DNA of 64,000 nucleotides, taken from assembly GCA_965116795.1 (NCBI GenBank), contig OZ220716.1, forward strand, positions 192,001 to 256,000, read 5' to 3'. Origin of the DNA: Gammaproteobacteria bacterium. GTDB taxonomy: Bacteria > Pseudomonadota > Gammaproteobacteria > JAJFKG01. The notes under the pieces were generated by a model, which was not told the origin of the DNA, ran no database searches, and saw only the letters and a program-made list of their open reading frames with translations. A program made the position numbers and the translations under genes. This document shows positions 27,070-59,753 of the stretch, piece after piece (positions within the stretch are counted from its first letter, which is position 1; every line of letters begins with the position of its first letter).

Positions 27070-27198
27070 TATAGACTCAAGCAATTGGATTGTAGGCAAG
27101 GCGGCAAGCGATTTTGCCACGGGAGTGTATATAAACATACATGACTGTGGCAAAATCGCGTAGCCAACAAAGTCTACAATTCAAGGGCGCCGAGTATA
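27070..27198 (+). repeat. Full-length ERIC/IRU-like MITE, family A
   Basis: TATA ends, AAGGCGGCAA, GGAGTGTAT-loop-ATACATGAC, TAGCCAAC; 129 bp; abuts the lptB stop. Confidence 0.9.
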
Positions 27199-27924
27199 TT
27201 ACAAATTAAATTCTTCACCCAGATAAACATCACGCACTTTTTTATTCGCCAATATGGTATCAGCCGTGCCTTCACAGATAATTTGCCCTTCACTGACAAT
27301 ATATGCACGCTCACAAATATCCAGTGTTTCTCTAACATTATGATCAGTAATCAATACACCAATCTCACGTTCGCGCAAATGCCGAATAATGTTTTTAATA
27401 TCAACAACAGAGATTGGATCAACACCAGCAAACGGTTCATCCAATAAAATAAACGTTGGATCAGTTGCTAATGCACGCGCAATTTCAACTCGACGACGTT
27501 CACCACCTGATAAACTCAAGCCAAGATTACGACGAATATGAGTCAAATGAAATTCTGCTAACAATTTTTCGCATAATGTTTCACGCTGTTGGCGAGTCAA
27601 TGCTTTACGTAACTCCAAAATAGCCATAATATTCTTTTCAACTGACAATTTGCGAAAGACTGATGCTTCTTGCGGCAAATAACTAATGCCAAGACGGGCA
27701 CGTTGGTGCATGGGTAGTGTAGTTACATTAGCATCATCGATAAAAACATCTCCTGCTTCACCCATGATCAAGCCAACTATCATGTAAAAACTAGTAGTCT
27801 TACCGGCACCATTAGGTCCTAATAAACCAACAATTTCACCGTTATTAACCGATAACGACACTCCGTTCACGACCAAACGAGATTTATAAGTTTTTTGTAA
27901 ATTGACTGCCCGTAACGTTCCCAT
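27199..27924 (-). CDS. lptB: LPS export ABC transporter ATPase
   Basis: [57 protein letters not shown]. Confidence 0.97.
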
Positions 27925-27944
27925 TGATAATCACCTTGTTAAAC

Positions 27945-28126
27945 TATAGCTTTTCAGAAAAATAAATTAGATTTTATCATTTCATCTTGAGTTCATCTAG
28001 CCGCGTTGCTCATTCAAAAAATACTCAAAATAGCTCAACTATTCTTCCGCTTTTTTTCAATCGCAACCCGACTACCTAAACACAATCTGAACGCTAAAAC
28101 TCAATTTATTTTTCTGAAAAGCTATA
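27945..28126. repeat. 182-bp Correia-like MITE, family D copy 2
   Basis: Reverse complement of 2221-2402 at roughly 90% identity; TIR TATAGCTTTTCAGAAAAATAAATT. Confidence 0.92.
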
Positions 28127-28141
28127 AATTCCGCATTAGCG

Positions 28142-28783
28142 CTACTGTAATTCGTAGCGCCCTCGCATTTGCGATAAAAATGTAATTTCCCCAGTATTTA
28201 AATTGGCTTTCATGCCCACTGCATTCACTTGATTGCTATTACTTTGTTTAATCTCTACTGGTTTTGCAGTATCAGCTAAACGTGTCTTTGGATAATAAGT
28301 TAATTCACTGGTAACTAACACTGTACCTAAATTAGTATTACTCTTGGCTTGCGAGATATGCACATTTCCCCATAAAAATAATACATCACCACCTTCACGC
28401 AATTGACCATGTTCAGCATTAATTACCCAAGGTGGTTTTGTATGATGTGTTTGGCTATTACCATTTACTGCTAACATCCCACCTATATCCAACGTATCAC
28501 TGACTCCATCATCAGTTGTGTTGTATAAAATAGCACGAGGCACGGTTAAGTCAGTAATATTGTTGGGGTAACGTATCGCTTTATCAGCATAATAACGACT
28601 TTTAACATTGCCTTGATTATCTAATTCAGATAATACCAAGTGTGTTGCATACGCTTCAGGCGTATCTGGATCGAGTTTTCGTTGGATTACATCATCTTGA
28701 GTCACTTGAACGACTAACCAAATACCAAAGATCCCAACAAGTATTAAGCCGAGCAAATAATAACTTCTGGTTATCCACATCAT
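28142..28783 (-). CDS. lptC: LPS export periplasmic protein LptC
   Basis: N-terminal TM, beta-jellyroll pattern (PW.I.A..G, L.GNV.I, T..PVEI, GM.ANL); follows kdsC. Confidence 0.85.
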   Translation of the reverse strand: MMWITRSYYLLGLILVGIFGIWLVVQVTQDDVIQRKLDPDTPEAYATHLVLSELDNQGNVKSRYYADKAIRYPNNITDLTVPRAILYNTTDDGVSDTLDIGGMLAVNGNSQTHHTKPPWVINAEHGQLREGGDVLFLWGNVHISQAKSNTNLGTVLVTSELTYYPKTRLADTAKPVEIKQSNSNQVNAVGMKANLNTGEITFLSQMRGRYELQ

Positions 28784-29316
28784 TCGAGGTAACGTTCTAA
28801 TAAGGTTGGTAATAAATCTTGCGCTATTAGAATTAAGTCACACACTTCTCGTGCAGCGCCATCGCCTCCTTTATGCGTTGTTTGCCAATGCGCATACTCG
28901 GCAACATACTCTATTGCATTAGCTACTGCTATGCTTAAACCCACTTGACACATCACTGGCAAATCAATAATATCATCACCGACATAAGCAATTTGTTCGT
29001 CTTTTAATGCTAATTTATCACGCAATTCACGATACGCTACACGCTTATCGTCCTGGCCTTGATAAACATGTTTGATCCCTAATTGATTCATTCGTTTGTC
29101 TAGCAATGGTGAACGTCGTTTGGTAATAATGCCAACGTGTAATCCCATTTGCTGCAGAGCAACAATTCCAATACCATCATGCACATGAAAACCTTTACAT
29201 TCCAGATCAGAATCGTAATAGTACAAAGTGCCATCTGACAGTACACCATCAACATCAAAGATAACTAATTTAATTTGACGTGCACGCTCGAGCACAGATT
29301 CTGCAATAGATTGCAT
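28780..29316 (-). CDS. kdsC: KDO 8-phosphate phosphatase
   Basis: IFDVDGVLSDG HAD motif, AYVGDD..DLP, GG.GAAREVCD; ATG overlaps the kdsD stop. Confidence 0.94.
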   Translation of the reverse strand: MQSIAESVLERARQIKLVIFDVDGVLSDGTLYYYDSDLECKGFHVHDGIGIVALQQMGLHVGIITKRRSPLLDKRMNQLGIKHVYQGQDDKRVAYRELRDKLALKDEQIAYVGDDIIDLPVMCQVGLSIAVANAIEYVAEYAHWQTTHKGGDGAAREVCDLILIAQDLLPTLLERYLE

Positions 29317-30305
29317 CACACTACTCCTGCTTGCAATAACGTGTGCATATGCAATACCCCACACAACTTATTACTATCATCTAATACAACTAATGATGTG
29401 ATCTTATTTTGTTGCATTTTACTTAATGCATCCACAGCTAATATAGCTGGGGTTACACATTTAAACTCTGATGTCATGACCTCATCGATAGTCACTGTAT
29501 GCAAATCAGATACGCTTTCAATAGTGCGCCGTAAATCCCCATCTGTATACAATCCAATAACGTTATATTGTTTATCAACAACAATGGTCATGCCTAACCG
29601 TTTCTCAGTCATCTCCACAAGTGCTACGGTTAATGCCGTACCACTGACCACCTGTGGAATAGCATCACCAGTCACCATTAAATCACTTACATGCAATAAT
29701 AAACGTCGCCCTAAGGTACCGCTGGGATGTGATAGTGCAAAATCGTTAGCAGTAAAGTTACGTGCTTTTAACAGTGCGATCGCTAATGCATCACCCATGG
29801 CTAATGTTGCCGTGGTGCTCGCTGTTGGGGCTAATCCTAGTGGGCATGCTTCTTTGGTAATGCTGACGTCAATGTGCACAGTTGCTGTTGTTGCTAATAC
29901 AGAGTGTGGACTGCCAGTCATTGCAATTAGCGGGATCTTGAGACGTTTAATTAAGGGTAATAATGCGAGTAACTCATCAGTACGTCCAGAATTAGATAAC
30001 ACTAATAACACATCTTGTTGAGTAATCATGCCCATATCGCCATGGCTGGCTTCACCAGGATGTACAAAAAAAGCAGGAGTGCCCGTGCTGGCAAGGGTAG
30101 CAGCAATTTTGCGAGCAATATGTCCTGATTTGCCCATACCACTGACAATCACCCGCCCTTGGCAGCCAAGACAATAACGGCAGGCTGTTATAAATGTATC
30201 ATCAATGCGGGTGGCCAAATCAGCAAGTGCAGCTTGCTCAATCTCGATTACTGACAAGCCTGCTGTGCGTAATATATCGTCATCTGCTGTGTTAGGGGTG
30301 TTCAT
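29316..30305 (-). CDS. kdsD: Arabinose 5-phosphate isomerase
   Basis: GMGKSGHIARKIAATLASTGTP, HPGEASHGD, CBS domains. Confidence 0.96.
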   Translation of the reverse strand: MNTPNTADDDILRTAGLSVIEIEQAALADLATRIDDTFITACRYCLGCQGRVIVSGMGKSGHIARKIAATLASTGTPAFFVHPGEASHGDMGMITQQDVLLVLSNSGRTDELLALLPLIKRLKIPLIAMTGSPHSVLATTATVHIDVSITKEACPLGLAPTASTTATLAMGDALAIALLKARNFTANDFALSHPSGTLGRRLLLHVSDLMVTGDAIPQVVSGTALTVALVEMTEKRLGMTIVVDKQYNVIGLYTDGDLRRTIESVSDLHTVTIDEVMTSEFKCVTPAILAVDALSKMQQNKITSLVVLDDSNKLCGVLHMHTLLQAGVV

Positions 30306-30449
30306 AAGATAGGATTAGTAACTCACCGTGATAATATCGAGGCCAGATTATAGCGTAGTACTAGAGCAAAATCACCAATTGCTGCTAAGCTGTTAACAAG
30401 CTACCTTATAAGCTAACTGACTGTTTCATCAAATGATTATGATGTTGGA

Positions 30450-31265
30450 ATGACAATGACTGAACCTACACCTCTGGTAACTATAGATAACTTACACTAC
30501 CGACGTGGTAACACGGTTATCTTTAACAACGCATCGCTACATATTCCTCGTGGGAAAATCACGGCGATCATGGGCCCCAGTGGTACGGGTAAAACCACAT
30601 TACTTAAACTAATTGGGGCAAAGCTTACTCCTAACCGTGGTCAAATTCATGTAAATGGACATGCCATACATGATTTATCACGCCACCAATTATATGAACT
30701 GCGTAAACAAATCGGTATGTTATTTCAAAATGGTGCGCTCTTTACCCACCTGAGCACATTTGACAATGTTGCTTTTCCATTACGTGAACACACGACTTTA
30801 CCAGAAAGTATGATTCGTGATTTAGTATTAATGAAATTAAATGCAGTGGGATTGCGCGGCGCTATTAACTTAATGCCCAGCGAACTATCTGGCGGCATGG
30901 CAAGACGTGTTGCACTAGCCCGTGCAATTATTTTAGATCCGATGTTAATTATGTATGATGAACCATTTACCGGACAAGATCCGATTTCGTTAGGGGTATT
31001 AGTCAAATTAATTCGCCAAATTAACGATAGCCTTGGTATGACATCTATTATCGTGTCACACGATGTCAATGAAACTATGGAAATCGCTGATTACATTTAT
31101 ATTATTGCCAACGGTGATGTCGTTGGACACGGCAGCCCTGCGATTTTACAACACAGTGCTAATCCATTCGTATCACAATTCATGCATGGCTTACCTGATG
31201 GTGTTGTGCCATTTCATTATCCTGCAGATGATTTTAAACAACAATTACTCGAGGAACCGGTGTAA
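30450..31265 (+). CDS. mlaF: Mla ABC transporter ATPase
   Basis: [45 protein letters not shown]. Confidence 0.95.
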
Positions 31266-32047
31266 TGCTCACTTTAATTCAAAAGCTCGGTTACATTAGC
31301 ATTCAATATTGTCAACACTTTGGACGATCCGGTGTATTTCTATCACGTGTTCTGCTAAGACAACCACGTATATTAAAATCTGTTCCATTAATTATTCGCG
31401 AAATATATAACGTTGGCGTGCTGTCATTAGTCATTATTGTATTATCCGGTGTATTTATTGGTATGGTGGTTGGTCTTCAAGGTCATACTATTCTTGTTAA
31501 ATTCAGTGCTGATCAAGAATTAGGACAACTGGTTGCGCTCAGTGTCATCCGTGAATTAGGCCCTGTGGTAACCGCACTATTGTTTGCAGGACGTGCTGGC
31601 TCGGCATTAACTGCTGAAATTGGTTTAATGAAAACCACCGAACAACTCGATAGTATGGAAATGATCGGAGTCGACCCACTATGGCGGATTATCTCTCCAC
31701 GTTTTTGGGCAGGCTGCATTGCAGTACCAGGATTAACAGTCATCTTTAGTGCTGTTGCCATTTTAGGTGGTTATTTTATTGGTGTGGAATGGTTAGATGT
31801 TGATGCTGGCGCCTTTTGGACAAGTATGCAAACAGCCGTTGACTTTCGTATTGATGTCATTAATAGTTTAATCAAAAGTGTCGTGTTTGGCATAGTAATC
31901 ACTTGGATTGCAATTTATCAAGGTTACGATACGGTACCAACTGCTGAAGGCGTAGGACGTGCAACAACACGTACCGTTGTTTACTCGTCACTGGCCGTGC
32001 TTGGACTCGACTTCACATTAACTGCAATCATGTTAGGAGGCTGGTAA
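31265..32047 (+). CDS. mlaE: Mla ABC transporter permease
   Basis: [38 protein letters not shown]. Confidence 0.96.
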
Positions 32048-32517
32048 TGGTGCGTGAAAAATACATTGAAACTGCAGTTGGTTTATTTATGTTAGCTGCA
32101 ATCATTGCCATGTTAGTTCTGGCATTTAAAGTTAGTGGATTAAATTTATCATTAGGTAGAAGCAGTTATAGCGTAACAGCTAGCTTTGCTAATATCGGTA
32201 ATTTAAAACCCCGTGCTGAAGTATCATTAGCTGGTGTTAAAATTGGTGAAGTTCAATACATTGAACTTGATACTAATGATTACATGGCAAAGATTACCAT
32301 GGTTATCGATGCAAATGCTGATGCCATTCCAACAGACTCCACAGCAAGCATCCTAACATCTGGTTTAATAGGTGCAAATTATGTGAGTTTAACCCCTGGG
32401 TTTGAAGATGCTTATTTAAAAAATGGAGATCATATTAGTAATACTAACCAAGCATTAATTTTAGAAAATCTAATTGGTCAATTGCTATTTAGCTTAAAAG
32501 ATAAATCATCAAAGTGA
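32047..32517 (+). CDS. mlaD: MCE protein MlaD
   Basis: ETAVGLF, F.NIGNLK, GVKIG.V, TSGLIGANY. Confidence 0.94.
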   Translation: MVREKYIETAVGLFMLAAIIAMLVLAFKVSGLNLSLGRSSYSVTASFANIGNLKPRAEVSLAGVKIGEVQYIELDTNDYMAKITMVIDANADAIPTDSTASILTSGLIGANYVSLTPGFEDAYLKNGDHISNTNQALILENLIGQLLFSLKDKSSK

Positions 32518-32527
32518 GGATATAATT

Positions 32528-33189
32528 ATGACACCATATACTACTACCCGACGTTTACCACTATCACGTTATCTTGCATTAGTTATTAGTGTCATTTTAG
32601 CGGGAATCATGCTGCAATCTCATGCTGCCACATCAGGTACAACAACAAATTCAACAGATTCACCAGAAGAAATTGTTAAAAACACCTCGGATGAAGTCAT
32701 TTCACAATTATGCAAAGAACCGAATATCGCTAATAATATTCCGACAGCTTACGCTATCATTAAAAAGTATGCTGCACCTTATATGGATAATGTTGGTATG
32801 GCACGCTCAGTACTTGGGCGTCAACGGTGGAAAGCAACTAGTGCGTCTCAACAACGACGTTTTACTGACACATTTAAAGTAACTGTGATGCGTACGTATG
32901 CAGTTGCCTTGTCTCAATACACCAACGAAACCGTACGTGTGTTACCACTACGTGGCAACCAACAACAATCTCGTGTTATTGTTAAAACCCAGATTTTAGG
33001 CAATGGACCTACTGTTGCGGTTAATTACCGCTTGGTTCGTAAAAATGATGGTTGGAAAGTGTATGACTTTGATGTGGAAGGCGTTAGTATGTTACGCAGT
33101 TTTCGCAGTCAATTTGCTGAGGAACTTGCTAGAAATAATAGCCTAGATGCATTAATTAATACGCTACAGCAACATAATCGTGACGTCAA

Positions 33190-33193
<4 letters not shown>
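32528..33193 (+). CDS. mlaC: Phospholipid-binding protein MlaC
   Basis: MARSVLG..W, WKVYDF.VEGVSM..SFRSQF. Confidence 0.92.
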
Positions 33194-34784
<1,591 letters not shown>

Positions 34785-34824
34785 TAGTGAAGTACTATTC
34801 GGGAAAACGTCAAAGGAAAGATAC

Positions 34825-35586
34825 ATGACAACAACGTTAACTGAATTAGTTAAATACTGTGATCGTTTATTGGAAAGCGATAGCTTTCATGATTATTGTC
34901 CGAATGGTTTACAAGTACAAGGTAAACAAAACATTACTACGATTGTATCCGGAGTAACTGCATCGCAAGCCTTACTCGATGCGGCTGTGACACTACATGC
35001 TGATTTAGTATTGGTACATCACGGTTTCTTTTGGCGTGGTGAACAACCGCAAGTCACTGGGATGAAACGTAACCGTCTACATACATTATTGCAACACGAC
35101 ATCAGTTTGCTGGCTTATCATATTCCCTTAGATGCCCATCCTAAATTAGGTAATAACGTACAATTAGCCAAACAATTAGGGATACGCGTTACTGATACAT
35201 TTCCCACTGAATTCACCCCAAGCATTGGTTTTGTCGGCAAATTAACTGAACCCATGCCAGCAGAACAATTTGCTGAACACATTGCAACGGTACTACAACG
35301 TAAACCGTTACATATTAAAACTCATCAGCGTCCGCTGCAAACCATTGCCTGGTGTAGTGGCGGTGCCCAAGATTATATTGAAACAGCAGCAAATTATGGT
35401 ATCGATGCTTACTTGTCTGGTGAAATATCAGAACGCACCACACACAGTGCACGTGAATTAACTATTGATTATTTTAGTGCTGGGCACCATGCGACTGAAC
35501 GTTATGGGATAAAAGCATTAGGTAAACATCTAGCAAGTAAATTTGATCTAACTTGTGAGTTTATAGATATTGACAATCCAGTCTAG
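34825..35586 (+). CDS. Nif3-like dinuclear metal centre protein (YbgI)
   Basis: DYCPNGLQV, VHHG.FW, YHIPLD.HP..GNN, GHHATERYG. Confidence 0.94.
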   Translation: MTTTLTELVKYCDRLLESDSFHDYCPNGLQVQGKQNITTIVSGVTASQALLDAAVTLHADLVLVHHGFFWRGEQPQVTGMKRNRLHTLLQHDISLLAYHIPLDAHPKLGNNVQLAKQLGIRVTDTFPTEFTPSIGFVGKLTEPMPAEQFAEHIATVLQRKPLHIKTHQRPLQTIAWCSGGAQDYIETAANYGIDAYLSGEISERTTHSARELTIDYFSAGHHATERYGIKALGKHLASKFDLTCEFIDIDNPV

Positions 35587-35588
35587 CA

Positions 35589-35649
35589 TATACTCTGCGC
35601 CCTTGAATTGTAGGCTTTGTTGGCTACAATCCAATTGCTTGAGTCTATA
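35589..35649 (-). repeat. Internally deleted ERIC-like element, family A
   Basis: Both ends match 27070-27198; the core is lost at a CTAC microhomology. Confidence 0.88.
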
Positions 35650-35661
35650 CTTCGTTATAAA

Positions 35662-36432
35662 TCAAATGTACTTTAACTTTTCTAGTTTAGCATGTTGCGC
35701 TGATACCACACCATGTTGCGACACCCTCCAATTGTTATCGATAAATCCAACCTGTGTTAATTGTTTTAATACGATCAGTAACCGTTTTTTAAAGTTACCA
35801 CGACGTTTTTCGTTAGTTCCACAATATAACTGTAAGCTATCCAATTCAGTAACGGGAATAGTTTTATATGTTGACCAAAAACCATGTAACCAACGTGCCA
35901 ACCCTCTTGGTAATGCCATACGTTGTGATAAATTAAGCACAACTGCTGCCGTTGTATTAATAAACTGAACATACTCTGGGTTAAATACAAATACAATTTG
36001 TTTACCTGCACGCTCTAAACATAATGTTGTAAAAAACTGTCCATGGAAATGTTGCTTACCATAATAAATACAACATTCCACATTAGCTAAACGGTTTACG
36101 ACTGTCTGTACTAGTTGATAATCAGTACGGCCGTAATGTCGATTGTTTAAGACAGCAAATAATTGGCTAAGTGATATTCGGCAAGTTAGATCGGTTGGTA
36201 ATTGAATTGAATACGTGTGAACTGTTAGTAATGTTGTTAAATAATGCAATGCCAATACTATATCACCATCATATTGTGACAAATATGCACCGCGATATCC
36301 GATGTGTTGTGCTGTTAAACTCGCGACTGTATGCGTAGTTATTCGCTGATCTCGACGTGCCATACCAAACAGAGATGAACGCAGTAATGCCACATTAGCA
36401 CACCCTGGGGACTGCCATGGGTTGCTAATCAT
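35662..36432 (-). CDS. TrfA-like plasmid replication initiator homologue
   Basis: LLRSSLF, I.YRG..L.Q.D.DI.L.L, LARWLHGFWST, L..YCG...RGNF...L...L.QL...GF...W pattern. Confidence 0.7.
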   Translation of the reverse strand: MISNPWQSPGCANVALLRSSLFGMARRDQRITTHTVASLTAQHIGYRGAYLSQYDGDIVLALHYLTTLLTVHTYSIQLPTDLTCRISLSQLFAVLNNRHYGRTDYQLVQTVVNRLANVECCIYYGKQHFHGQFFTTLCLERAGKQIVFVFNPEYVQFINTTAAVVLNLSQRMALPRGLARWLHGFWSTYKTIPVTELDSLQLYCGTNEKRRGNFKKRLLIVLKQLTQVGFIDNNWRVSQHGVVSAQHAKLEKLKYI

Positions 36433-36585
36433 TTTGTTACCTTGCTATTACTGCATTGATGAGTTTATTCTAACATATTGATTTTGATTGCAAATATGAT
36501 TATTCTATACGTCACCAAAAAATGTCAGCTTTGAGTATACACTAAAAAAATAAAAACCAATTTCTGCATTTTGCAAGTTAAATTG

Positions 36586-37947
36586 TTATACCCCAGCAAC
36601 TGTCATCTGCTCTAATAAAATAGATCCGGAATGAATACGCCCACGTCGATCGACATCGTTGGCAACAGCCACTAAATTTAACCATAAATCAGCTAAATTG
36701 CCTGCAATAGTAATTTCAGCAACTGGGTATTGGATGGTACCATTCTCTACCCAAAAACCAACAGCACCACGTGAATAATCGCCAGTAACAATATTAACTC
36801 CTTGCCCAATTAATTCAGTAACTAGCAATCCTGTACCCATTTGTTGACATAATTGCGGCAATGTTAAGTCACTATGGTTAATCATTAAATTATTAACGCC
36901 ACCTGCATTCCCCGTTGTTTGTCTATTTAACTTACGAGCACTGTAGCTACTTAATACATACGATTGTAATTCACCTTGCTCGACAAATGTCTTAGTACGA
37001 GTCGCCACACCATCACCATCAAATGCACGACTACCCATTGCTTTGGGTAAATGCGGCTGCTCACTGATTGAAATGTGTTTTGCACATACAGACTGTTGCA
37101 ATTTATCTAACAAGAAACTGGCTTGGCGGTATTGGCTAAGGCCACTAATTGCTGACACTAAATGGCCAACAAATCCTCTGGCTATCTCAGCTTGTAAAAT
37201 AACCGGGACTTGAGTTGTCACAATCGGCTTTGCATGTAAACGCGCAACTGCACGTTGCCCTGCTTGCTTTCCAATAATAGCTGCATTGTCTAATTCATTT
37301 GGATCACGCGCGACGGTATAACTATAATCACGTTGCATATCATCTTGTTCACTGGCAACTGGCACACAATGTAAGCTGTGTGATGAACTGGCATACGTAC
37401 CTACAAAACCATGACTATTGGCATACAAACGTATACCATTACTCGTTGACACACTGGCACCATCTGAATTAGTAATACGTTGATCAACATCACGTGCTGC
37501 TTGTTCGGCATTACAGGCTAATTCAATTGCTTGCGGTAATTCAATTGACCAAGGATGATATAAGTCTAGTTCCAGAACATTGGTAGCCATTAAGTCACGA
37601 TCAGCTAACCCTGCATACGGATCATCTGTTGCATACTGTGCAAATTGACAAGCTGCCTCAACCGCCGAATCAATTGCAGCAGTGGTTAAATCCGTTGTCG
37701 ATGCACTGCCCTTACGTTTACCAAAATAAACCGTGATCCCAATCCCATTATCACGCTGATATTCAACTATTTCCACATCACCTAAACGTACATTTACTGA
37801 AAAACCATTATCAATGCTTGCTGATACCTCAACAGCAGTCGCACCACGTTGTTTTGCCTGTGCTAACACACGTTGTGCCAATATGGTTAATCGGTCGGTT
37901 ATTTGTTGTGGATTATCAATTAAATGAATTAAATTAGTTGTTGACAC
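36586..37947 (-). CDS. pmbA: Metalloprotease PmbA/TldE
   Basis: LDLYHPW, RITNSDGA, FDGDGV, GQGVNIVTGDYSRGA.GF, EITIAGNL. Confidence 0.95.
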   Translation of the reverse strand: MSTTNLIHLIDNPQQITDRLTILAQRVLAQAKQRGATAVEVSASIDNGFSVNVRLGDVEIVEYQRDNGIGITVYFGKRKGSASTTDLTTAAIDSAVEAACQFAQYATDDPYAGLADRDLMATNVLELDLYHPWSIELPQAIELACNAEQAARDVDQRITNSDGASVSTSNGIRLYANSHGFVGTYASSSHSLHCVPVASEQDDMQRDYSYTVARDPNELDNAAIIGKQAGQRAVARLHAKPIVTTQVPVILQAEIARGFVGHLVSAISGLSQYRQASFLLDKLQQSVCAKHISISEQPHLPKAMGSRAFDGDGVATRTKTFVEQGELQSYVLSSYSARKLNRQTTGNAGGVNNLMINHSDLTLPQLCQQMGTGLLVTELIGQGVNIVTGDYSRGAVGFWVENGTIQYPVAEITIAGNLADLWLNLVAVANDVDRRGRIHSGSILLEQMTVAGV

Positions 37948-38040
37948 GTATTACCTCATTTTAAAAACCATTATTATTTGCGTAGAACGGTTATGCTAGG
38001 GTATATTAACAGCCGCCAGTTTAGCGTGGGTTCGGACCAA

Positions 38041-38201
38041 TATACTCAAAGCGTTTTGAATTTAGGCGAGGCGGCAACCCTGGATAATCTCCGATTTCCA
38101 GGGCAAGGCTGCTCTTCGAATCAAAAGGAGTGTATTGAAATACATGACTTTTGTGAGAAAGCGCAGCCAACAAAGCATAAATTTAAAACGTGAAGAGTAT
38201 A
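38041..38201 (+). repeat. ERIC-like MITE, family B, with a small hairpin inserted in the left arm
   Basis: TATACTC...GAGTATA ends, GAGGCGGCAA, GGAGTGTAT-ATACATGAC, GCAGCCAAC; insert CCCTGGA..TCCAGGG at about 38078-38112. Confidence 0.9.
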
Positions 38202-38227
38202 GCAATGTTAAGCCAGTCGGAGCAAAT

Positions 38228-38893
38228 ATGAAAACACAGGATATTTTACATCAACCAACCCAATTTTCTAACTTCTTTACCGTACACCATCCACTGCTAT
38301 TACATAAGTTATCTCTGCTACGCGATAAACGTACACCTAACAAACAATTCCGCGAATTAGTCAAAGAAATTACCATCTTGTTGGTATATGAAGTAACACG
38401 CAATTTAACCACGCAGTCCACAACCATTGAAACACCAATAACAACGATGCAAGCACCTCAACTATCTGGCAAACAACCGGTGATCTTACCCATTTTGCGT
38501 GCTGGGCTTGGCATGGTTGATGGAATTTTATCGTTAATGCCTATGGCTAAAATAGGTCATATTGGCTTATACCGTGATGAAAAAACATTAAAGCCCGTAT
38601 CCTATTATTTTAAAATTCCTGATGACAGTGCTGATAGGCAATGTTATGTATGCGATCCGATGCTCGCCACTGGCGGATCGGCTGTCGCTACGATTAAGCA
38701 ATTAACACAACGTAATATTAGTGATATTACCTTTGTCTGTTTAGTTGCATCTCCTGAGGGAGTTGAACAATTTTGCAAAGCGCACCCAACTATTCCTGTT
38801 TATGCTGCAGCATTAGACGAACGGTTAAATGAAAATGGTTATATCGTTCCTGGTTTAGGGGATGCAGGTGATCGGTTATTTGGAACACATTAG
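38228..38893 (+). CDS. upp: Uracil phosphoribosyltransferase
   Basis: [45 protein letters not shown]; true start is ATG 38228 (the ORF-track start lies inside the MITE). Confidence 0.97.
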
Positions 38894-38915
38894 TGACACA
38901 GTGCACAAACTATAA

Positions 38916-39689
38916 TTAATCACTGTATCGATAATTCAGATTAATTGACAGCGGTAATTCATTGCACTTATTGACACGCTGAATATGCTTTTTTAAATAC
39001 TGATTAAAAAAATAAATAAACAATTTACGAGCACACTTAGAGAGTTGAGCCTTGATCAAGTATGCTTGTACCGATATAGTAATTTCTTGTGTAGTCTTCG
39101 CTGGCGTGTTGCTCTCTATTTTACCTTTAACTGAATGAGTCAACAGATAACATACTGCACGTGCACGAGAGCGAGCAGTTACTAAAAACTTGGTTTTCTC
39201 CATATCAATCAATGCAAACTGTCCATTATCATATAATATGTTACCCGCATGAGCGCTACGACAATTAATACCTCTACTATGAAGCACTTCTAAAAATTCT
39301 ACTGTTTTACACAGCATACGTTGTCGATATGCCTGATCAGTATTTTGACGTAATAAATTATCTATCGATATTCCTGGAACCTTATAATAACTAATCACAT
39401 ACGCCTGTTGCTCTGGGCAGTCATATGCAGCAATTAATTGCATTGTCTTGATGCCACGCTTAGTTAATTTTTGAATAACCATCAGTAATCTTTGTATTCT
39501 AGACCGTAAATGCCGCCATTCATTAGTTTCATATTTTAGACACTTTATTATTTTATCATCAGGCATCAACACAACCTGTTTATTATAATGATTCGGCGAC
39601 ATCAATATTTCACCACCTGATACCATTTTTAAATAATCTTGATGAGTGATTGTCGTCACAGGATACCGTTTTAATTCGCATTTTGTCAT
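38916..39689 (-). CDS. Atypical kinase-fold protein (Kdo/WaaP/InaA-like), paralogue 2
   Basis: IIKCL, LHSRGINCRSAHAGNILY, FALIDME. Confidence 0.7.
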   Translation of the reverse strand: MTKCELKRYPVTTITHQDYLKMVSGGEILMSPNHYNKQVVLMPDDKIIKCLKYETNEWRHLRSRIQRLLMVIQKLTKRGIKTMQLIAAYDCPEQQAYVISYYKVPGISIDNLLRQNTDQAYRQRMLCKTVEFLEVLHSRGINCRSAHAGNILYDNGQFALIDMEKTKFLVTARSRARAVCYLLTHSVKGKIESNTPAKTTQEITISVQAYLIKAQLSKCARKLFIYFFNQYLKKHIQRVNKCNELPLSINLNYRYSD

Positions 39690-39707
39690 TTTTTCTATCC
39701 TATCTCA

Positions 39708-40484
39708 CTATTCACAGTAGCGATAATTTGCATCAATTAACGGCGATAAAATACCTAGCTGCTTAAATCTCTCAATCTTTTTTCTAATACACTTATTTAA
39801 GTAATAAATAAATTGCTTACGAGTATGCTCAGGGAATTGTGCTTTTGCTAAGTATGTTTGCACTGACACATCAATTTCTTGTATATTATTAACCGGCATT
39901 TTGCGTCCTGCTTTTCCCTCAACTGCATGCATTAGAAAACGGTATACGCCTTCTGCACGATGTTGCGTTGATACAGAAAATTTCGCTTTTTCCATATCGA
40001 TTAAGGCAAACTCGCCTTGATCGTTATATAACACATTACCTGCATGACAACCGCGAAAATTAACGCCTTTTTGATGTAAAGTTGCCAAAAATATTACTGT
40101 TTTAGATAACAGATCTTGCCTGCGTGTATCATCAACACCATATTGCAACAATAAATCACTAACTGCTGTGCCTGGTAATTTGTAATAACAAATGATATGT
40201 GCTTTTTGTTCCGGAAAATCATATGCGGCAACTATTTTCATTGTGTTAACACCACGTGCAGCTAATCCTTGTGCCGCCGTTAAATAGCGTTGTATTCTAA
40301 AGCGTGTACTACGACACGGTTTACTTGCCAAACATTTTATAATTAAGCCATCAGGCATTAACACCACTTGTTTATTACATTTCTCCTCTGCAACAAGCAT
40401 TTTACCACCCGCGACCATATCTAAATATTGTTGATGAGTGATTTTAGTAATTGGATATCGTTTTAGTTCAGGTTTTGTCATCAT
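39708..40484 (-). CDS. Atypical kinase-fold protein (Kdo/WaaP/InaA-like), paralogue 1
   Basis: IIKCL, LHQKGVNFRGCHAGNVLY, FALIDME; colinear with its neighbour. Confidence 0.7.
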   Translation of the reverse strand: MMTKPELKRYPITKITHQQYLDMVAGGKMLVAEEKCNKQVVLMPDGLIIKCLASKPCRSTRFRIQRYLTAAQGLAARGVNTMKIVAAYDFPEQKAHIICYYKLPGTAVSDLLLQYGVDDTRRQDLLSKTVIFLATLHQKGVNFRGCHAGNVLYNDQGEFALIDMEKAKFSVSTQHRAEGVYRFLMHAVEGKAGRKMPVNNIQEIDVSVQTYLAKAQFPEHTRKQFIYYLNKCIRKKIERFKQLGILSPLIDANYRYCE

Positions 40485-40509
40485 TTATCGTGTTCCTATT
40501 GCTCTGTTA

Positions 40510-40682
40510 TATACTCAAAGCGTTTTGAATTTAGACGAGGCGGCAAGTCTTCGAATCAAAAGGAGTGTATTAAAATACATGACTTTTGTGAAAAAGCTTG
40601 CCCAGATCCTGAATCGAGTTCAGGACAAGCTTGATCCAGGGACGCAGCCAACAAAGCATAAATTTAAAACGCTTTGAGTATA
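40510..40682 (+). repeat. ERIC-like MITE, family B, with nested REP-like inserts in the right arm
   Basis: Near-perfect TIR TATACTCAAAGCGTTTT; insert at about 40598-40643 contains AGATCCTGAATCGAGTTCAGGA. Confidence 0.9.
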
Positions 40683-40694
40683 TCATTACAAATG

Positions 40695-42140
40695 CTATTT
40701 AGTTTGTGTACCACCAACAGTTAAACTATCAATTTTCAATGTCGGTTGCCCAACCCCAACCGGTACTGACTGCCCATCTTTGCCGCATACGCCCACGCCG
40801 TTATCCAACGCGAGATCATTACCCACCATCGACACACGGGTTAACACATCAGGACCATTGCCAATTAATGTGGCGCCTTTAACTGGGTATTGCACTTTAC
40901 CATTTTCAACCCAGTAAGCTTCACTGGCAGAAAATACAAATTTTCCAGACGTAATGTCTACAGCGCCACCACCAAAATTGACTGCATACAGTCCTTTATC
41001 AACACTGGCAATGATTTCTTCTGGGGTATGGCTGCCCGCTAACATATAAGTATTTGTCATCCGTGGCATTGGGGTATGTGCATATGATTCACGTCGACCA
41101 TTGCCGGTTGCTGTCATCTTCATTAACTGTGCATTTTGCTTATCTTGCATGTAATTTTTTAAAATACCATTTTCAATGAGTACAGTACATTGTGTGGGCG
41201 TACCTTCATCATCGACATTTAACGAACCACGACGTTTACTTAGCGTGCCATCATCAACGACGGTACAACAATCCGTTGCAATCCGTTCACCTAACCGATC
41301 ACTAAATGCGGATGTTTTTTTACGGTTAAAATCAGCTTCCAGACCATGGCCAATCGCCTCATGCAATAACACAGCTGGCCAACCGGGGCCTAATACTACC
41401 GGCATTGCCCCTGCCGGTGCTGGGCGCGCCTCTAAATTGACTAATGCCTGACGCACTGCTTCATTTGCATAGGTTTGCAGCGTATCATCATTAAACAATG
41501 CGGCATAGGTGTCACGGCCACCACCCCCATAACTCGCTGTTTCAATCCGTCCTTGTTGTTCAACAATAACGGTAACATCAGCACGTACTAATGGGCGAAT
41601 ATCAGCTGCTAACATACCGTCACTGTCCAACATTAAAATAATATCGTATGTGCCAGATAAACTGGCAATTACTTGTTTCACTCGCGAATCAATCGCACGT
41701 GCTGTTTTATCAATGTTTTGTAACAAAGCCACTTTTTCTGCATGGGTTAATGCTGTTAATGGATTATTGGTTGGATATAAATCATGTCCTGTGATTTGAC
41801 GCGCTACGCCAATACGATTATTGCCACCATGCAACACAATTGAACGCGCTGCATTAGCCGCCTGGGTTAATGTCGGTAATTGAATATCATCCGAATAAGC
41901 AAAGCCGGATTTCTCACCACTGAGTGCTCTCACTCCAACACCACGACTGGTATCATAACTGCCTTCTTTTAAAATACCGTCTTCTAATACCCACGACTCA
42001 TGGACTGATGCTTGAAAATATAAATCTGCTGCATCGATAGTAGTCCCCAACATATCACCCAATAAACGTTCTAATTGCTGATCAGTAATACCTGCAGGGA
42101 TAAGTAGTGATTGTTTGGCGATGTCGATCGGAGCACTCAC
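40695..42140 (-). CDS. tldD: Metalloprotease TldD
   Basis: [49 protein letters not shown]. Confidence 0.97.
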
Positions 42141-48105: not shown

Positions 48106-48324
48106 TACTATATTAAAAAACAGTGATACCTTAGAGTATTTTTTGAAAAGATTCAATGCATATTAACTTACTTTAACGACCATGATTATGCTGCTTACTC
48201 AACACGACAAACACACGCTCAAATCGCGCTAACCAACATCACTGCCCATATCATTTAATACTTGGTGTTCAACGCATTCTGCTTTAGAATTATGCCTGAT
48301 TTACATTCAGATGAGATGACATGA

Positions 48325-49455
<1,131 letters not shown>

Positions 49456-49525
49456 ACGCAATAGTCTAATAGCTTTTTAATTCAAGTTGCCATTGAAAAA
49501 AAGCGAAAGAATAGGAGATTAGGCT

Positions 49526-50368
49526 ATCAAACTATTCAAGCAAGGCTCTCTGCTAGGTTTGCGTTTGTTAATGTTAATTGTATTGTCTATTGTCATGATG
49601 ACATTGGATCACAATCAACAGACCATACGTCCACTACGTACTACACTAAATTGGATCATTACACCATTTCAATATATGGTTAGTTGGCCGATTGATGCAG
49701 CGCATTGGGCACAGCAAACCTGGGTAAACCATCACCAATTAAGTCGAACCAACAAACAATTACGCGAACAACTATTACAACTCCAAGGTCAATTACAACG
49801 CCAACTTAGCTTAGAACAAGAAAATACAACGTTGCGTGCGCTGTTAAATTCAGCTAGCTATGTGCACGGCGATGTGTTAGCTGCACAATTACTCGCAGTT
49901 AACACTGCACCTTTTGTTAATGAAATTATTATCAATAAAGGATCCCAAGCACACGTAGCATTGGGACAACCTGTGATTGATGCTAGCGGGATCATGGGGC
50001 AAGTGATCGAAGTTAATCAATTCACCAGTAGGGTATTGCTGATTGATGACACACGTAGTGCAATCCCAGTACAAGTCCAGCGTAATGGGATCCGTGCTAT
50101 TGCAGACGGCCGCGGCACTGCTAATCAATTGACACTATTGCATATACCAGAAACAGCAGATATTAAAGTTGGCGACTTACTGGTTACCTCAGGACTTGGA
50201 CAACGTTTTCCAATTGGATACCCTGTAGCAACAGTGACTGAAGTCATTCACAGTCACGGAGAAACATTTGCAACAATTATTGCTAAACCACGTGCACAGT
50301 TAAACCGTAGTCGTTATGTATTATTAGTATGGCCAAATTCAAGTTTGGCATATACTCTGCGCAATTGA
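49526..50368 (+). CDS. mreC: Rod shape-determining protein MreC (probable ATC start)
   Basis: ENTTLRALL, IINKGS, GDLLVTSGLG.RFP.GYPVA; AGGAG 8 nt before an in-frame ATC. Confidence 0.92.
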   Translation: MKLFKQGSLLGLRLLMLIVLSIVMMTLDHNQQTIRPLRTTLNWIITPFQYMVSWPIDAAHWAQQTWVNHHQLSRTNKQLREQLLQLQGQLQRQLSLEQENTTLRALLNSASYVHGDVLAAQLLAVNTAPFVNEIIINKGSQAHVALGQPVIDASGIMGQVIEVNQFTSRVLLIDDTRSAIPVQVQRNGIRAIADGRGTANQLTLLHIPETADIKVGDLLVTSGLGQRFPIGYPVATVTEVIHSHGETFATIIAKPRAQLNRSRYVLLVWPNSSLAYTLRN

Positions 50369-50425
50369 ATTGTAGGTTTTGTTGGCTACGCGATATTGCC
50401 TACAATCCAATTGCTTGAGTCTATA
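50351..50425 (-). repeat. Internally deleted ERIC-like element, family A, overlapping the mreC stop
   Basis: TATACTCTGCGC...GAGTCTATA; core lost at a TTGCC microhomology. Confidence 0.88.
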
Positions 50426-50505
50426 CGTTGTTATAACTTAGCAAAGGTTTTTTAGTAAAGGCGGCATTTGTATTTTTCTGACAAATAAGGATAGATAATA
50501 AACTC

Positions 50506-50994: not shown

Positions 50995-51018
50995 GATAAT
51001 GTCTATGAGTAAGCAACT

Positions 51019-54939: not shown

Positions 54940-55408
54940 TATGCAGTAAACCCCACGCATACACACCAGCAACTGCATCATCTAACATAATGCCAAATCC
55001 ACTATGAAAACGACGTTCTAATATTGCGATGGGAAATGGTTTATAAATATCAATTATTCTAAATAATACAAATCCGACAATCATCCACCACCAACCACTC
55101 GGTGCCAACAGCATTGTTATCCAATAACCAACAAATTCATCCCACACAATACTGGGATGATCATCCAAACCAACTGCCTTTGCAGCAATCCCACAACAGA
55201 AAATACCAAAGATAAATGCCAATACTAAACATATTAAATACCCATAAAATGGTAATTGGTTTAAGCCAAGATATATGAATAGTGCTAATAAACTCCCCCA
55301 AGTACCTGGTGCAAATGGCAATAACCCACTTCCAAACCCCACTGCACATAAAATCAATGGTTGGGTTAATACTTGCTTTTTAGTAAATGTGACTGGAATA
55401 TTTGTCAT
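54905..55408 (-). CDS. pgpA: Phosphatidylglycerophosphatase A
   Basis: GFGSGL.P.APGTWGS, D.PSIVWDE, FR..DI.KP.P, GIMLDD; start reassigned to ATG 55408 (the ORF-track start lies in a repeat). Confidence 0.94.
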   Translation of the reverse strand: MTNIPVTFTKKQVLTQPLILCAVGFGSGLLPFAPGTWGSLLALFIYLGLNQLPFYGYLICLVLAFIFGIFCCGIAAKAVGLDDHPSIVWDEFVGYWITMLLAPSGWWWMIVGFVLFRIIDIYKPFPIAILERRFHSGFGIMLDDAVAGVYAWGLLHIIVWIVETVSL

Positions 55409-55431
55409 GACTTCATTACTGTTCACGCTGA

Positions 55432-55505
55432 TATACTCAGCGCCCTTGAATTGTAGGCTTTGTTGACTACGCGATATTGCCACATTTCTAAATGCGGTGA
55501 GTATA
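55432..55505. repeat. Chimeric 74-bp element (family A end fused to family F end) overlapping the nusB stop
   Basis: TATACTCAGCGCCCTTGAATTGTAGG... joined at TTGCCAC to ...ATTTCTAAATGCGGTGAGTATA. Confidence 0.85.
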
Positions 55506-55922
55506 TTCTAATGGTCGCCAACGTTGTGCTGCTTTATCTAAAACGCTATTTACAAAACTATAACTATCTTGTGCACCGAATAGTTTAATGATCTTAATTG
55601 CTTCATCAATGATGATAGCATAAGGCACATCAACACGTTCACTTAATTCAAATATGGCTAAACGTAATACGGATAACGTCACTGGATCAAGTTTATTAAT
55701 CGGCCGCGTTAAATCATGAGATAGTTTCGTATCAAGTGCATCAACTTGCTCAATGACCCCTTTGGTTAAGGCATCAAAGTAGACCATGTCTACTTTTGCC
55801 ATGTTATTTTCAGCAAGAAAGTCATCGCGTATTTGTGCCGCTGTTCGCTTAGTAAAATGCCATTGATACAATGCTTGCACAGCAAAACGCCGCGCTTTAT
55901 GTCGTGCACTCGGTTTAATCAT
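55488..55922 (-). CDS. nusB: Transcription antitermination factor NusB
   Basis: [29 protein letters not shown]...K.FG, FVNSVLD. Confidence 0.95.
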
Positions 55923-56370
55923 GATCTGCTAATCGCTCTATTTCTTCACGAAATTCATTGATATCTTGAAAACGACGGTACACTGATGCAAAACGTACAT
56001 AAGCAACTTGATCTAAGTTACGTAATTCTGACATGACTGATTCACCCAATGTGTTAGCACTGATTTCACGCTCACCAGAAGCACGTAATAATCGTTTTAT
56101 ATTTGCTATTGCTTCTTCTATTTGTTCAGCACTAACCGGCCGTCTTTCCAGTGCACGTTGCATACCTGCACGTAATTTTTCTTCATTAAATGGTTCACGG
56201 CGTTTATCATTCTTGATCACATGTGGCATGACTAATTCTGCTGCTTCATACGTGGTAAACCGCTCAGCACACTGTACACATTCACGCCGGCGACGGACTT
56301 GCGTACAATCACTAATTAAGCGTGAATCGATAACTTTAGTATCTGGTGCTTGACAAAAAGGACAATGCAT
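55915..56370 (-). CDS. nrdR: Transcriptional repressor NrdR
   Basis: [37 protein letters not shown]. Confidence 0.97.
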
Positions 56371-56389
56371 TACTTCAACCTTACTTTGG

Positions 56390-56470
56390 CAATTGCTTGA
56401 GTCTATATTTCGTTATAACCCATATCAAACATCATTTCTATTTGCCACATTTCTAAATGCGGTGAGTATA
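56390..56470. repeat. Repeat fragments: family A end plus tail, and family F end overlapping the glyA stop
   Basis: CAATTGCTTGAGTCTATA-TTTCGTTATAA; TTGCCACATTTCTAAATGCGGTGAGTATA (56442-56470) identical to 55477-55505. Confidence 0.85.
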
Positions 56471-57718
56471 CACTGGAAATTGATGACATAAAGCAAGTAC
56501 CTTTGTTTTGACCTTAGCAATAACATCAGCATTGTGAATATCATCCAAAATGTCACAAATCCAATCCGCTAATTGAGTTACTGCTTTCTGATTAAAGCCA
56601 CGTGTAGTAACTGCTGGTGTCCCTAAACGCAAACCACTGGTGACAAATGGAGAACGTGGCTCATTCGGCACAGTGTTTTTATTAACAGTAATGTTAGCTG
56701 CACTTAATGCCGCTTCTGCATCTTTACCAGTAATATCTTTGTTAATTAAATCTATTAAAAATAAATGATTATCCGTACCACCTGAGACAATATTAAATCC
56801 GCGATCTAACATCACAGAGACCATTGCCTTTGCATTAGTCACAACTTGCTGTTGGTATTGTTTAAATTCAGGTTGTAATGCTTCTAAGAATGCAACCGCT
56901 TTTGCAGCAATAACATGCATTAATGGCCCTCCTTGGATCCCAGGAAAAATCAGCGAATTGAATTTTTTGGTTAACTCTGAATTATCCTTAGCAAGGATAA
57001 TCCCACCACGCGGACCACGTAATGTTTTATGCGTTGTACTAGTGACAACATCAGCAAAAGGTACTGGGCTTGGATACACACCAGCAGCAACTAAACCAGC
57101 CACATGCGCCATGTCTGCTACCATATATGCACCTACTTCATCAGCAATTTGCCGAAAGCGTGCCCAATCGACTGTTAATGAATAGGCAGAAAAGCCGGTC
57201 ATGATTAATTTAGGTTTATGTTCGCGTGCCAATTGTGCAGCGTGATCATAGTCAATTTCACCGGTTGCTGGGTTTAAACCATACTGAATGGCATTGTATA
57301 ATCGACCTGACATATTCACTTTGGCACCATGAGTCAAATGCCCACCATCAACTAAACTCATACCAAGAATGGTATCACCCGGTTGCAATAACGCCATATA
57401 CACAGCTGCATTAGCTTGGCTGCCTGAATGCGGTTGTACATTAGCATACTCTGCATTAAATAATTGCTTAGCCCGTTCAATGGCTAAACTCTCGGCAACA
57501 TCCACATATTCACAACCGGCATAATAGCGTTTTCCAGGATAACCTTCAGCATATTTGTTTGTTAATACCGATCCTTGTGCAGCCAACACTCGTGGACTTG
57601 CGTAATTCTCCGATGCGATTAATTCAATGTGCTCTTCTTGTCGTTGCTCTTCTTGGCATATCGCTTGCCATAATGCATCATCGAATCCAGCAATCGTCAT
57701 CTCTTGCGTGAACATCAA
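56453..57718 (-). CDS. glyA: Serine hydroxymethyltransferase
   Basis: [34 protein letters not shown]. Confidence 0.98.
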
Positions 57719-57940
57719 TTACTTCTCCCATCAGCAAATAGTGTCCAACAAGGTACTTGAAAAAACCGTGATTTTCAATGTATTTTCTACTCAAAATACT
57801 CTTTAGGTACAGTGGAACCGTATTAAAATGGTACGAAGGTACAACACGTTATCAATTCACTTGCTTTTCACCAAATACTTATGGTTTGATCGGATTGTAT
57901 GCTTTGGAATTAATTGAACTTAATTACGTGAGAGAAAGTA

Positions 57941-59623
57941 ATGGCACAATACATTTATACGATGAACCAAGTCAGCAAACGGGTTGATGGGATGAAGCAT
58001 CCCATTTTAGATCGAATCAATTTATCATTTTTTCCAGGCGCCAAGATTGGTGTACTTGGACTAAATGGTGCAGGTAAATCATCACTATTAAAAATTATGG
58101 CCGGTATCGATCAAACATTTGAAGGTGAAGCACGCCCACAAACCGGGATACAAGTAGGGTATTTACCGCAAGAACCACAATTAGATCTGAAAAAAGATGT
58201 GCGTGGTAATGTAGAAGAAGGCGTTCACAAATTAAAAACACTATTAACCCGCTTTGATGAAATTAGTATGAAATTTGCTGAACCCATGGATGATGCAGCA
58301 ATGAATGCATTATTAGAAGAACAAGCCAATTTACAAAATGCAATCGATGCTGCCGGCGCCTGGGAATTAGATCGCAAATTAGATATTGCAGCAGATGCAC
58401 TGCGCTTGCCACCATGGGATGCTGATGTCACTACCCTATCTGGTGGTGAAAAACGGCGAGTTGCATTGTGTCGGTTATTACTGTCTTCACCCGATATGTT
58501 GTTACTTGATGAACCTACTAACCATCTAGATGCACAAAGCGTCGCGTGGTTAGAACAATTTTTACATGAGTTTAAAGGGACGATTGTCGCGGTAACACAT
58601 GATCGTTATTTCTTGGATAATGTTGCTGGCTGGATCTTAGAACTTGATCGTGGTTGCGGGATCCCTTACGAAGGCAATTACACAGCTTGGCTAGAGCAAA
58701 AAAGTGCGCGTCTTGAAATGGAAGAAAAACAACAAAGTGCCCATCAAAAAGCTTTGAAAAAAGAATTAGAATGGTCACGCACCTCAGCAAAAGGACGCCA
58801 TGCTAAAAGTAAAGCACGTTTAAACCAATTCGAAGAATTAAGTTCGAAAGACTTTCAAAAACGTAATGAAACCCAAGAAATCTATATTCCGCCTGGCCCA
58901 CGTCTAGGAGATATGGTCTTTGAAGTTGATAACATCACTAAACATTTTGATGACAAATTATTATTTACCGATGTTAGTTTTGTTATTCCAAAAGGAGCCA
59001 TCGTTGGGATCATTGGCGCTAATGGTACTGGGAAAACAACACTATTTAAGTTGCTCACGCAGCAACAGCAACCCGATAGTGGGACTATGCGCATGGGTGA
59101 GACTGTAGCATTATCTTATGTCGATCAAATGCGTGATCATTTACGCGACGATTGTACTGTGTGGGAAGAGATTACAGATAAGCAAGATATCTTACGCATT
59201 GGTCAATATGAAATTCCATCGCGTGCGTATGTTAGTCATTTTAATTTCAAAGGGACCGATCAGCAAAAATACATTAACGATCTTTCCGGTGGTGAACGTA
59301 ACCGCGTACATTTAGCTAAATTACTGCGTAGTGGCGGCAATGTATTAATGTTAGATGAGCCGACCAATGATCTGGATGTGGAAACTATGCGCGCACTAGA
59401 AGAAGCCTTATTAGCGTTTCCGGGTACCATTATGATTATTTCACATGACAGGTGGTTTTTAGATCGGATTTGCACACATATGATTGGTTTTGAAGGCGAT
59501 AGCCAAGTGACATTTTATCAAGGAAATTACACGGAATATGCCGCTGATTTAGCAAAGCGTACAGGAAAAGATGCTAATCAACCACATCGTGTTCGATATA
59601 AGCGTTTTGATCGCGCCGTATAA
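57941..59623 (+). CDS. ettA: ABC-F translation factor EttA
   Basis: MAQYIYTM, LSFFPGAKIGVLGLNGAGKS, two ABC domains, LSGGERNRVHLAK. Confidence 0.96.
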   Translation: MAQYIYTMNQVSKRVDGMKHPILDRINLSFFPGAKIGVLGLNGAGKSSLLKIMAGIDQTFEGEARPQTGIQVGYLPQEPQLDLKKDVRGNVEEGVHKLKTLLTRFDEISMKFAEPMDDAAMNALLEEQANLQNAIDAAGAWELDRKLDIAADALRLPPWDADVTTLSGGEKRRVALCRLLLSSPDMLLLDEPTNHLDAQSVAWLEQFLHEFKGTIVAVTHDRYFLDNVAGWILELDRGCGIPYEGNYTAWLEQKSARLEMEEKQQSAHQKALKKELEWSRTSAKGRHAKSKARLNQFEELSSKDFQKRNETQEIYIPPGPRLGDMVFEVDNITKHFDDKLLFTDVSFVIPKGAIVGIIGANGTGKTTLFKLLTQQQQPDSGTMRMGETVALSYVDQMRDHLRDDCTVWEEITDKQDILRIGQYEIPSRAYVSHFNFKGTDQQKYINDLSGGERNRVHLAKLLRSGGNVLMLDEPTNDLDVETMRALEEALLAFPGTIMIISHDRWFLDRICTHMIGFEGDSQVTFYQGNYTEYAADLAKRTGKDANQPHRVRYKRFDRAV

Positions 59624-59753
59624 CATAGACTCAAGCAATTGGATTGTAGGCTTTGTTGGCTGCATGATTTTGTCACAGTCATGTATGTCAATATACACTC
59701 CTGTGACAAAATCACTTGCCACCTCGCCTACAATCCAATTGCTTGAGTCTATG
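59624..59753 (-). repeat. Full-length ERIC-like MITE, family A, with homogenised 28-bp perfect TIR
   Basis: CATAGACTCAAGCAATTGGATTGTAGGC at both ends; core GTCATGTAT-loop-ATACACTCC; between convergent ettA and radA. Confidence 0.92.

Follow-up and report, generated by a model that had tools for sequence, protein, structure and literature searches.

The stretch analysed here (the window) comprises 64,000 nucleotides, positions 192,001 to 256,000 of contig OZ220716.1 from a gammaproteobacterial genome of 2.45 Mb and 41% GC (G000), and it carries copies of two families of short palindromic repeats, A and B. A full-length family A copy (27070..27199, + strand) abuts the stop codon of lptB, and a transcript would read its weaker-folding strand. 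Its shared core (27091..27178, +) scores 67.4 bits with the core model R2, in which this copy is itself included, and is laid out as a 5x6 internal loop, a variable stem, a tandem G.A plus G.U and a 5-bp apical stem. In a second copy, directly after the ettA stop (59624..59753, –), the two arms both belong to the left-arm type and form a perfect 28-bp inverted repeat. The other family A copies are reduced: only the arms persist at 35588..35649 (–), the core is mostly deleted at 50350..50425 (–, overlapping the mreC stop codon), and at 55431..55505 (–) an upstream TA-ended end, of E type, is joined straight to a family A right arm. The two family B copies lie between the divergent pmbA and upp genes (38041..38201, +) and 12 nt behind the tldD stop (40510..40682, +); each carries one additional side hairpin, inside the left and the right arm, respectively, which leaves the predicted main fold unaffected. 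A first-pass annotation of the sequence had named these copies, and all were found where it placed them, with the motifs it gave. In addition, a remnant at 56391..56470 (–) consists of an E-type TA-ended end (18/26 to the left end of the IS630 element described below), a spacer and the start of a family A left arm.

BLAST searches with four window queries returned 90 merged regions in the source genome. Fifty-three of these bear the core and span at least 100 bp, and nearly all of them lie between open reading frame (ORF) calls made with a crude ORF caller. The plain unit is 127 bp in family B and 130 bp in family A, and the elements range from 60 to 190 bp, which is too short for a transposase gene. 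Copies that have lost the core and retain only the arms are common. The two families had been told apart by their outer arms; these do differ, but so do the inner stems and the loop length. TA is found at both termini in 32 of 41 two-armed family B copies, while the left end of family A is atypical: what the first-pass annotation took for its terminus in the full-length copies is often an internal junction, although those copies and their motifs are present as described. A shared remnant precedes 13 of 19 family A left arms, and the longest remnants begin with a further TA-ended end that agrees with IS630 at 18/26 positions. Family A is thus composite, and in part of the family the mobile unit was probably longer than 130 bp.

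Each element is an imperfect palindrome that forms a single long hairpin and has an inverted repeat at its centre. The 27070 copy has a predicted energy of –64.2 kcal/mol (z –11.9), and none of 200 shuffles folded as well. When 24 full-length copies were aligned, 97.3% of cells paired and 18 of 42 pairs had changed on both sides, a result reached in 0/500 shuffles; the copies were hand-picked, insert-free and related, and the structure was derived from the same alignment, so this statistic is overstated. The covarying pairs all lie in stems other than the apical one. The covariation originally proposed for the central hairpin therefore holds between lineages, where the apical TGTAT/ATACA stem varies, but compensatory change is absent from that stem among the 24 genomic copies. 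In ERIC (enterobacterial repetitive intergenic consensus) elements of E. coli, the apical stem occurs in three sequences and is paired in all 17 rows parsed.

ERIC has been known since 1990 as a repeat of enterobacteria and vibrios whose interior has no assigned role. To compare the window repeats with it, we used a covariance model (R1) built from the 24 copies of this genome alone, with no ERIC sequence. In E. coli K-12, where 20 candidates were scored, R1 gave 18 full-length hits of 70.2–101.9 bits, and the next candidate scored 27.3. The hits include the aceF/lpd, pgk/fbaA and metR/metE intergenic copies, and by eye they agree with the sequences given for RU-1 and SeRU-1 in Table 1a of PMC2759123. 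Furthermore, a family B copy of 127 bp can be aligned gap-free to the 17 E. coli hits of 127 bp, with 53–82 identical bases; it shares the stem and loop layout of the aceF-lpd copy, and the same strand is favoured in both by about 15 kcal/mol. A blastn search with a family A copy gave no match in E. coli genomes and three short chance hits in plasmids. The kinship with ERIC claimed in the first-pass annotation is thus borne out by a model blind to ERIC and by a by-eye comparison with the published consensus: the repeats are true ERIC homologues.

They resemble ERIC/IRU/RU-1 (MITEEc1 in ISfinder, and likewise MITEPlu5 and MITEYpe1) in the 127-bp length of family B, TA ends, colinear sequence, stems and loops, the better-folding strand, intergenic sites and multiple copies; their ends also resemble those of the CCC-type IS630 elements described in sections of PMC6267812. 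They differ in their other arms and apical stem, in an identity of 42–65%, and in the side-hairpin and composite variants found here. That the genome is non-enteric, as first proposed, is an inference that draws on the presence of GatA/GatB and on the finding that just two genomes, one from the same genus and one from the same family, were closer than class level. To our knowledge, E. coli lacks GatA/GatB. On this placement, the host lies outside Enterobacteriaceae and Vibrionaceae, the ERIC range reported in passages of PMC10969869, and we accordingly file the elements as an ERIC homologue or variant and not as ERIC proper. Scans with R1, R2 and a core pattern (below) extend the range of ERIC-like elements beyond Enterobacterales and Vibrionales, much further than had been suggested.

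A search for an IS630-type partner with matching ends, advised at the outset, found one in the same genome. This 1,200-bp element (G000:1315253-1316452) encodes the only transposase match of its type in the genome (DDE_3, E 1.4e-33; HTH_33). An insert of about 100 bp (G000:1316126-1316226), TA-ended and related to a further repeat family, C, interrupts the transposase gene, and no uninterrupted form appeared in four sequencing runs of one study. A paralogous empty site (G000:2383270-2383439) has no IS and a single TA, so that the TA was duplicated on insertion of the IS; the sole read joint that skips the IS was traced to the paralogous flanks. The left consensus of family B (45 ends) agrees with the IS left end at 24 of 26 positions and the right consensus (45 ends) with the IS right end at 22 of 26, and the single base that distinguishes the two IS ends tracks left and right in family B likewise. 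The right end of E. coli ERIC matches the left ends of Klebsiella and Vibrio plasmid IS630 elements (36% identical proteins) at 20/26 positions but the resident IS630 of the source genome at only 11–12/26. These end comparisons suggest that the element ends track the IS630 of each lineage. A link between ERIC and IS630 is already in print for MITEPlu5 (in sections of PMC6267812), and ISfinder places MITEEc1 under IS630 (as given in part of PMC11602168). TA ends and terminal repeats matching a resident IS630 are likewise found in RUP with IS630-Spn1 and in MITEPlu5 with ISPlu3/8/19, and a mini-element inserted in the transposase gene is described for RUP in passages of the review PMC2229807. 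Unlike MITEs (miniature transposable elements bearing inverted repeats) mobilised by IS630, the present elements have an interior that is not derived from the IS: the likeness ends after 26 bp, and the interior is a core found across phyla.

A homologue of the transposase (E ≤ 1e-30) occurs in 14 of 400 genomes of the class scored, the source genome included. One of these, G314, has intact 345-aa transposases that are 70–72% identical, with transposon ends matching family B at 23/26 positions, and at least 149 R1 matches among the best 150 candidates scored. Family B-like IS630 ends enclosing other hairpin interiors were also observed in five genomes (G030, G049, G062, G050 and G070; loci L093, L106, L126, L130 and L131). 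R1 hits in G030, G050, G062 and G070, together with one in G049, were set aside as arm-only matches in which the full core is missing. In a spirochaete genome of 3.5 Mb (G401, L181), one 15-bp end motif was matched 730 times, and some of these elements bear the core; no partner IS for this motif or for other non-IS630 ends was found among the transposase loci inspected. The resident IS630 itself stands at the edge of an apparent integrative element, several paralogous ends of which occur in the genome. Beside it, L011:571-3102 (G000:1312570-1315101) encodes an 843-aa ORF with Ser-rich linkers that could be a host-directed protein; one stretch of it resembles an OTU-type cysteine protease motif. 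A recombinase-like 464-aa ORF with small neighbours lies at L011:4630-7310.

The core reaches well beyond ERIC. A pattern scan recovered at least 123 stretches in GTDB genomes and 11 more from viral contigs, with titles that include Chlorobium, Bacteroidales, Desulfobacterales, Nitrospirae, Bacillus, Clostridia, Coriobacteriales, Campylobacter, Scalindua, Spirochaetaceae, Pseudomonas and Klebsiella. The apical stem is fully paired in 136 of 137 pattern matches (chance expectation 1 in 8), and an AAC-type loop motif downstream, which is not part of the pattern, is present in 120/137. The GGAG/TGAC motif flanking the stem had been described as fixed; this holds in ERIC and in families A and B but not across phyla, where a register-shifted C-GGAG/TGAG form with a bulged A is the commoner one (90/137). 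Because the apical loop varies from 4 to 8 nt among the matches, a double-stranded DNA operator was rejected. For covariation analysis, we aligned 80 cores (75 picked from 120, two from the source genome and three from E. coli). The top mutual-information pairs were nested, and 14 of 17 pairs had changed on both sides (0/500 shuffles; score 0.626, against 0.168 when shuffled and at most 0.124 when slid), though here too the structure was derived from the alignment itself, and the pattern had in part fixed the apical stem. The asymmetric loops are invariant while the adjacent stems turn over; in two outer-stem columns not covered by the pattern, 30/33 and 24/28 of the mismatches are G.A/A.G.

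R2 found 3 to at least 150 matches per genome in 15 genomes chosen from the scan (best 150 scored). Among 150 genomes of the class, one per family, 63 had R2 matches (62/149 without the unpublished G041) and 19 had R1 matches, a few of them arm-only. The arms flanking the core differ widely between elements, and further arm types also carry it in the source genome, family D (below) among them. The inner ~85 nt is a module common to repeats with unrelated ends in many phyla, and recombination between ends and core runs both ways. There is good support for selection on the fold, and the strand-specific structure proposed in the first-pass annotation gains support from the covariation, the G.A mismatches on one strand, and loops that are invariant between gap and pgk. 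No match to Rfam at gathering level was found in the window. Weak matches to V_AS5 (RF02818) and sX9 (RF02228) over core loci in Klebsiella (30.6 bits), Chlorobium (30.5) and Pseudomonas (30.4) fall far below the gathering scores of 96 and 44, and at E-value level 20 + 20 + 20 of 134 pattern loci gave only flanking rRNA/tRNA and weak hits. The Coxiella elements QMITE1 and QMITE2 are, in passages of PMC5896051, similar in being transcribed, hairpin-forming MITEs of about 50 copies; their other sizes and variable direct repeats set them apart, a separation made by that description. A full-text search, with most subscription papers and supplements outside its reach, turned up no publication that describes ERIC homologues in a host of this kind, the cross-phylum core, or its retention at gap-pgk or in rRNA spacers.

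Retention of the core at fixed host sites was seen among 19 high-scoring loci from 18 mostly low-copy genomes, five of which lie between gap and pgk. A variant pattern made for this site matched 7 of 401 genomes, and six of the matches are at gap-pgk, each in its own gammaproteobacterial family: L361 (G119), L362 (G170), L358 (G167), L360 (G046), L357 (G078) and L359 (G135), all with the fold on the non-mRNA strand. Since an order-level search found G046 alone in its order, the gap-pgk copies span at least two orders. Five of them were compared: four-fold sites are 0.33–0.49 identical, close to saturation, the loops are invariant, the stem sequences change, and no IS-type ends are apparent, and we regard the gap-pgk copy as a candidate domesticated element. 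In the source genome, gap is followed after 7 nt by a family B copy, and a copy that has lost its core precedes pgk; both are antisense. There the two genes are far apart, and the placement may be due to chance. Three of the 19 loci are sense copies within rRNA/tRNA precursors, and a further one, antisense, lies beside a tRNA. Seven of nine core hits in a Bacillus genome fall in rRNA/tRNA operons (precursors), all sense, and two of three spacer copies in Microbulbifer are sense. Sense copies, some in tandem, were also observed in a 16S leader, in 16S-23S spacers and in tRNA clusters of Bacillota, Coriobacteriales and gammaproteobacteria; the rRNA/tRNA-linked core loci are L337, L339, L342, L349, L351, L352, L353, L338, L341, L334, L328, L327, L230 and L239.

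Orientation next to genes in the source genome is not random. At 7 nt or less from a stop codon, 13 copies are antisense and five sense with respect to the core, and at 8–400 nt the counts are 7 and 22 (Fisher p 0.002; crude ORF caller, three rows beyond 400 nt dropped); between genes of the same direction, 21 copies are sense and 13 antisense. Passages of three reviews (PMC2229807, PMC3184786 and PMC10969869) describe effects of ERIC on Yersinia mRNA that depend on RNase E and for which orientation is crucial. Taking these observations with the end match and the ERIC homology, we consider it probable that families A and B are non-coding, ERIC-homologous mini-elements moved by IS630, with a fold of ~85 nt that likely acts as RNA. 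Before its own interruption, the resident transposase would have copied TA-ended A and B units in trans to new TA sites. The fold, conserved on one strand, would act as RNA within read-through transcripts and set message processing or stability, so that insertions carrying the core would be tolerated or kept, and mini-transposons whose ends differ would have taken up the core repeatedly. A broader view, which we hold tentatively as possible, would make ERIC one carrier of an ancient, bacteria-wide ~85-nt module (its 5x6 loop rich in purines) with a host-recognised function in its own right, domesticated both in the rRNA/tRNA spacers of several phyla and at gap-pgk (six or more gammaproteobacterial families, two or more orders), and repeatedly captured; mini-transposons would capture the core because insertions then become tolerated or useful.

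Several observations weigh against the proposal of IS630-moved elements with an RNA-acting fold. On the side of mobilisation, the right end of family A (22 ends) matches IS630 at only 16–17/26 positions. The commonest ERIC-like element of G314 has, by eye, ends that differ from those of its transposases, and G001, a genome of the same genus that is 90% complete, has 59 R1 matches and no transposase match, which speaks against a simple pairing of element and IS. For A and B copies, no empty site was found: four sequencing runs gave no joint skipping a whole element in window positions 26000–42000. The sole IS630 copy is interrupted, with no intact transposase found here that could act in trans. 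A quite different mover, a hairpin-recognising HUH (Y1) transposase to which the IS630-like ends would be incidental, could be imagined from the seven Y1_Tnp genes of the genome, which form two groups, and from its REP-like hairpins, some of them nested within B copies. It is hardly credible against the 24/26 end match with the left/right asymmetry of IS630, the TA ends, and ends that follow the IS630 of each lineage.

On the side of RNA, the excess of G.U over A.C in the genomic copies (40:14 cells) shrinks to 21:12 (p 0.16) when counted by column type. The orientation cut-off was chosen after the data had been seen, on a crude ORF caller, and 13 of 18 stop-abutting copies carry the fold on the strand opposite the mRNA, as do the six gap-pgk copies; antisense copies also occur next to a tRNA in G177 (one copy) and in G416 (one of three). 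DNA and RNA energies favour the same strand (118/130 each), so that folding cannot choose the molecule. The latter agreement, the invariant loops on the non-mRNA strand at gap-pgk in six families, and the apical loop of 4 to 8 nt, which suits a hairpin and argues against a double-stranded site, would all fit a fold whose acting form is single-stranded or cruciform DNA, or else antisense RNA, bound by a host or transposition factor, with the effects of ERIC on mRNA being secondary. We nevertheless find this unlikely, given that copies in rRNA/tRNA precursors are mostly sense, that orientation in the source genome depends on the distance to the stop codon, and that arms-only copies are common, so that the core is not needed for element persistence. 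With rRNA-spacer copies mostly sense and gap-pgk copies antisense, selection may act on RNA or on single-stranded DNA, and the orientation at gap-pgk leaves room for a role at the DNA level or in antisense. Structural selection could be dispensed with altogether if template-switch repair of near-palindromes kept the arms complementary and the core were an old, horizontally spread passenger. Such repair would account for the 59624 copy, in which one arm has been replaced by the complement of the other, and for several B copies whose right arms were made fully complementary to the left; yet it would erase asymmetric loops, which are invariant beside stems that turn over, nearly all mismatches are G.A on one strand, and orthologous gap-pgk loops are kept at a four-fold identity of 0.33–0.49. 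This explanation is very improbable and largely refuted.

The matched pair of element and transposon in this genome, together with the intact close transposase in G314, makes ERIC-type transposition testable. The prior publication of the IS630 link to ERIC reduces the value of the finding. In the cross-phylum alignment, the two loops are the nucleotides that matter, and the remainder need only pair. What the fold does, and on which strand, can be addressed cleanly at the gap-pgk and rRNA-spacer sites, where it is single-copy.

Other features of the window were also recorded. Tandem paralogous ORFs of 257 and 258 aa occupy 38916-39689 and 39708-40484; neither of these nor the ORF at 35662-36432 had an NCBIfam match at 1e-10. 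Family C, a TA-ended element with 10 regions in the genome, is present at 2221..2402 (+) and at 27945..28126 (–), upstream of lptB; its centre looks core-like by eye, yet R2 gives it no score. Family D carries only the apical part of the core, between unrelated arms and with the 5x6 loop absent, and the copy at 11357..11478 (+) has a weak R2 score of 21.2 bits. It has 32 regions in the genome, among them window 11357-11478 and 61700-61755; 17 of the regions are long, and its inner stems are perfect and differ between copies. Finally, an inverted pair of REP-like 36-bp palindromes, a repeat with 28 genome regions, lies at 12582-12702.

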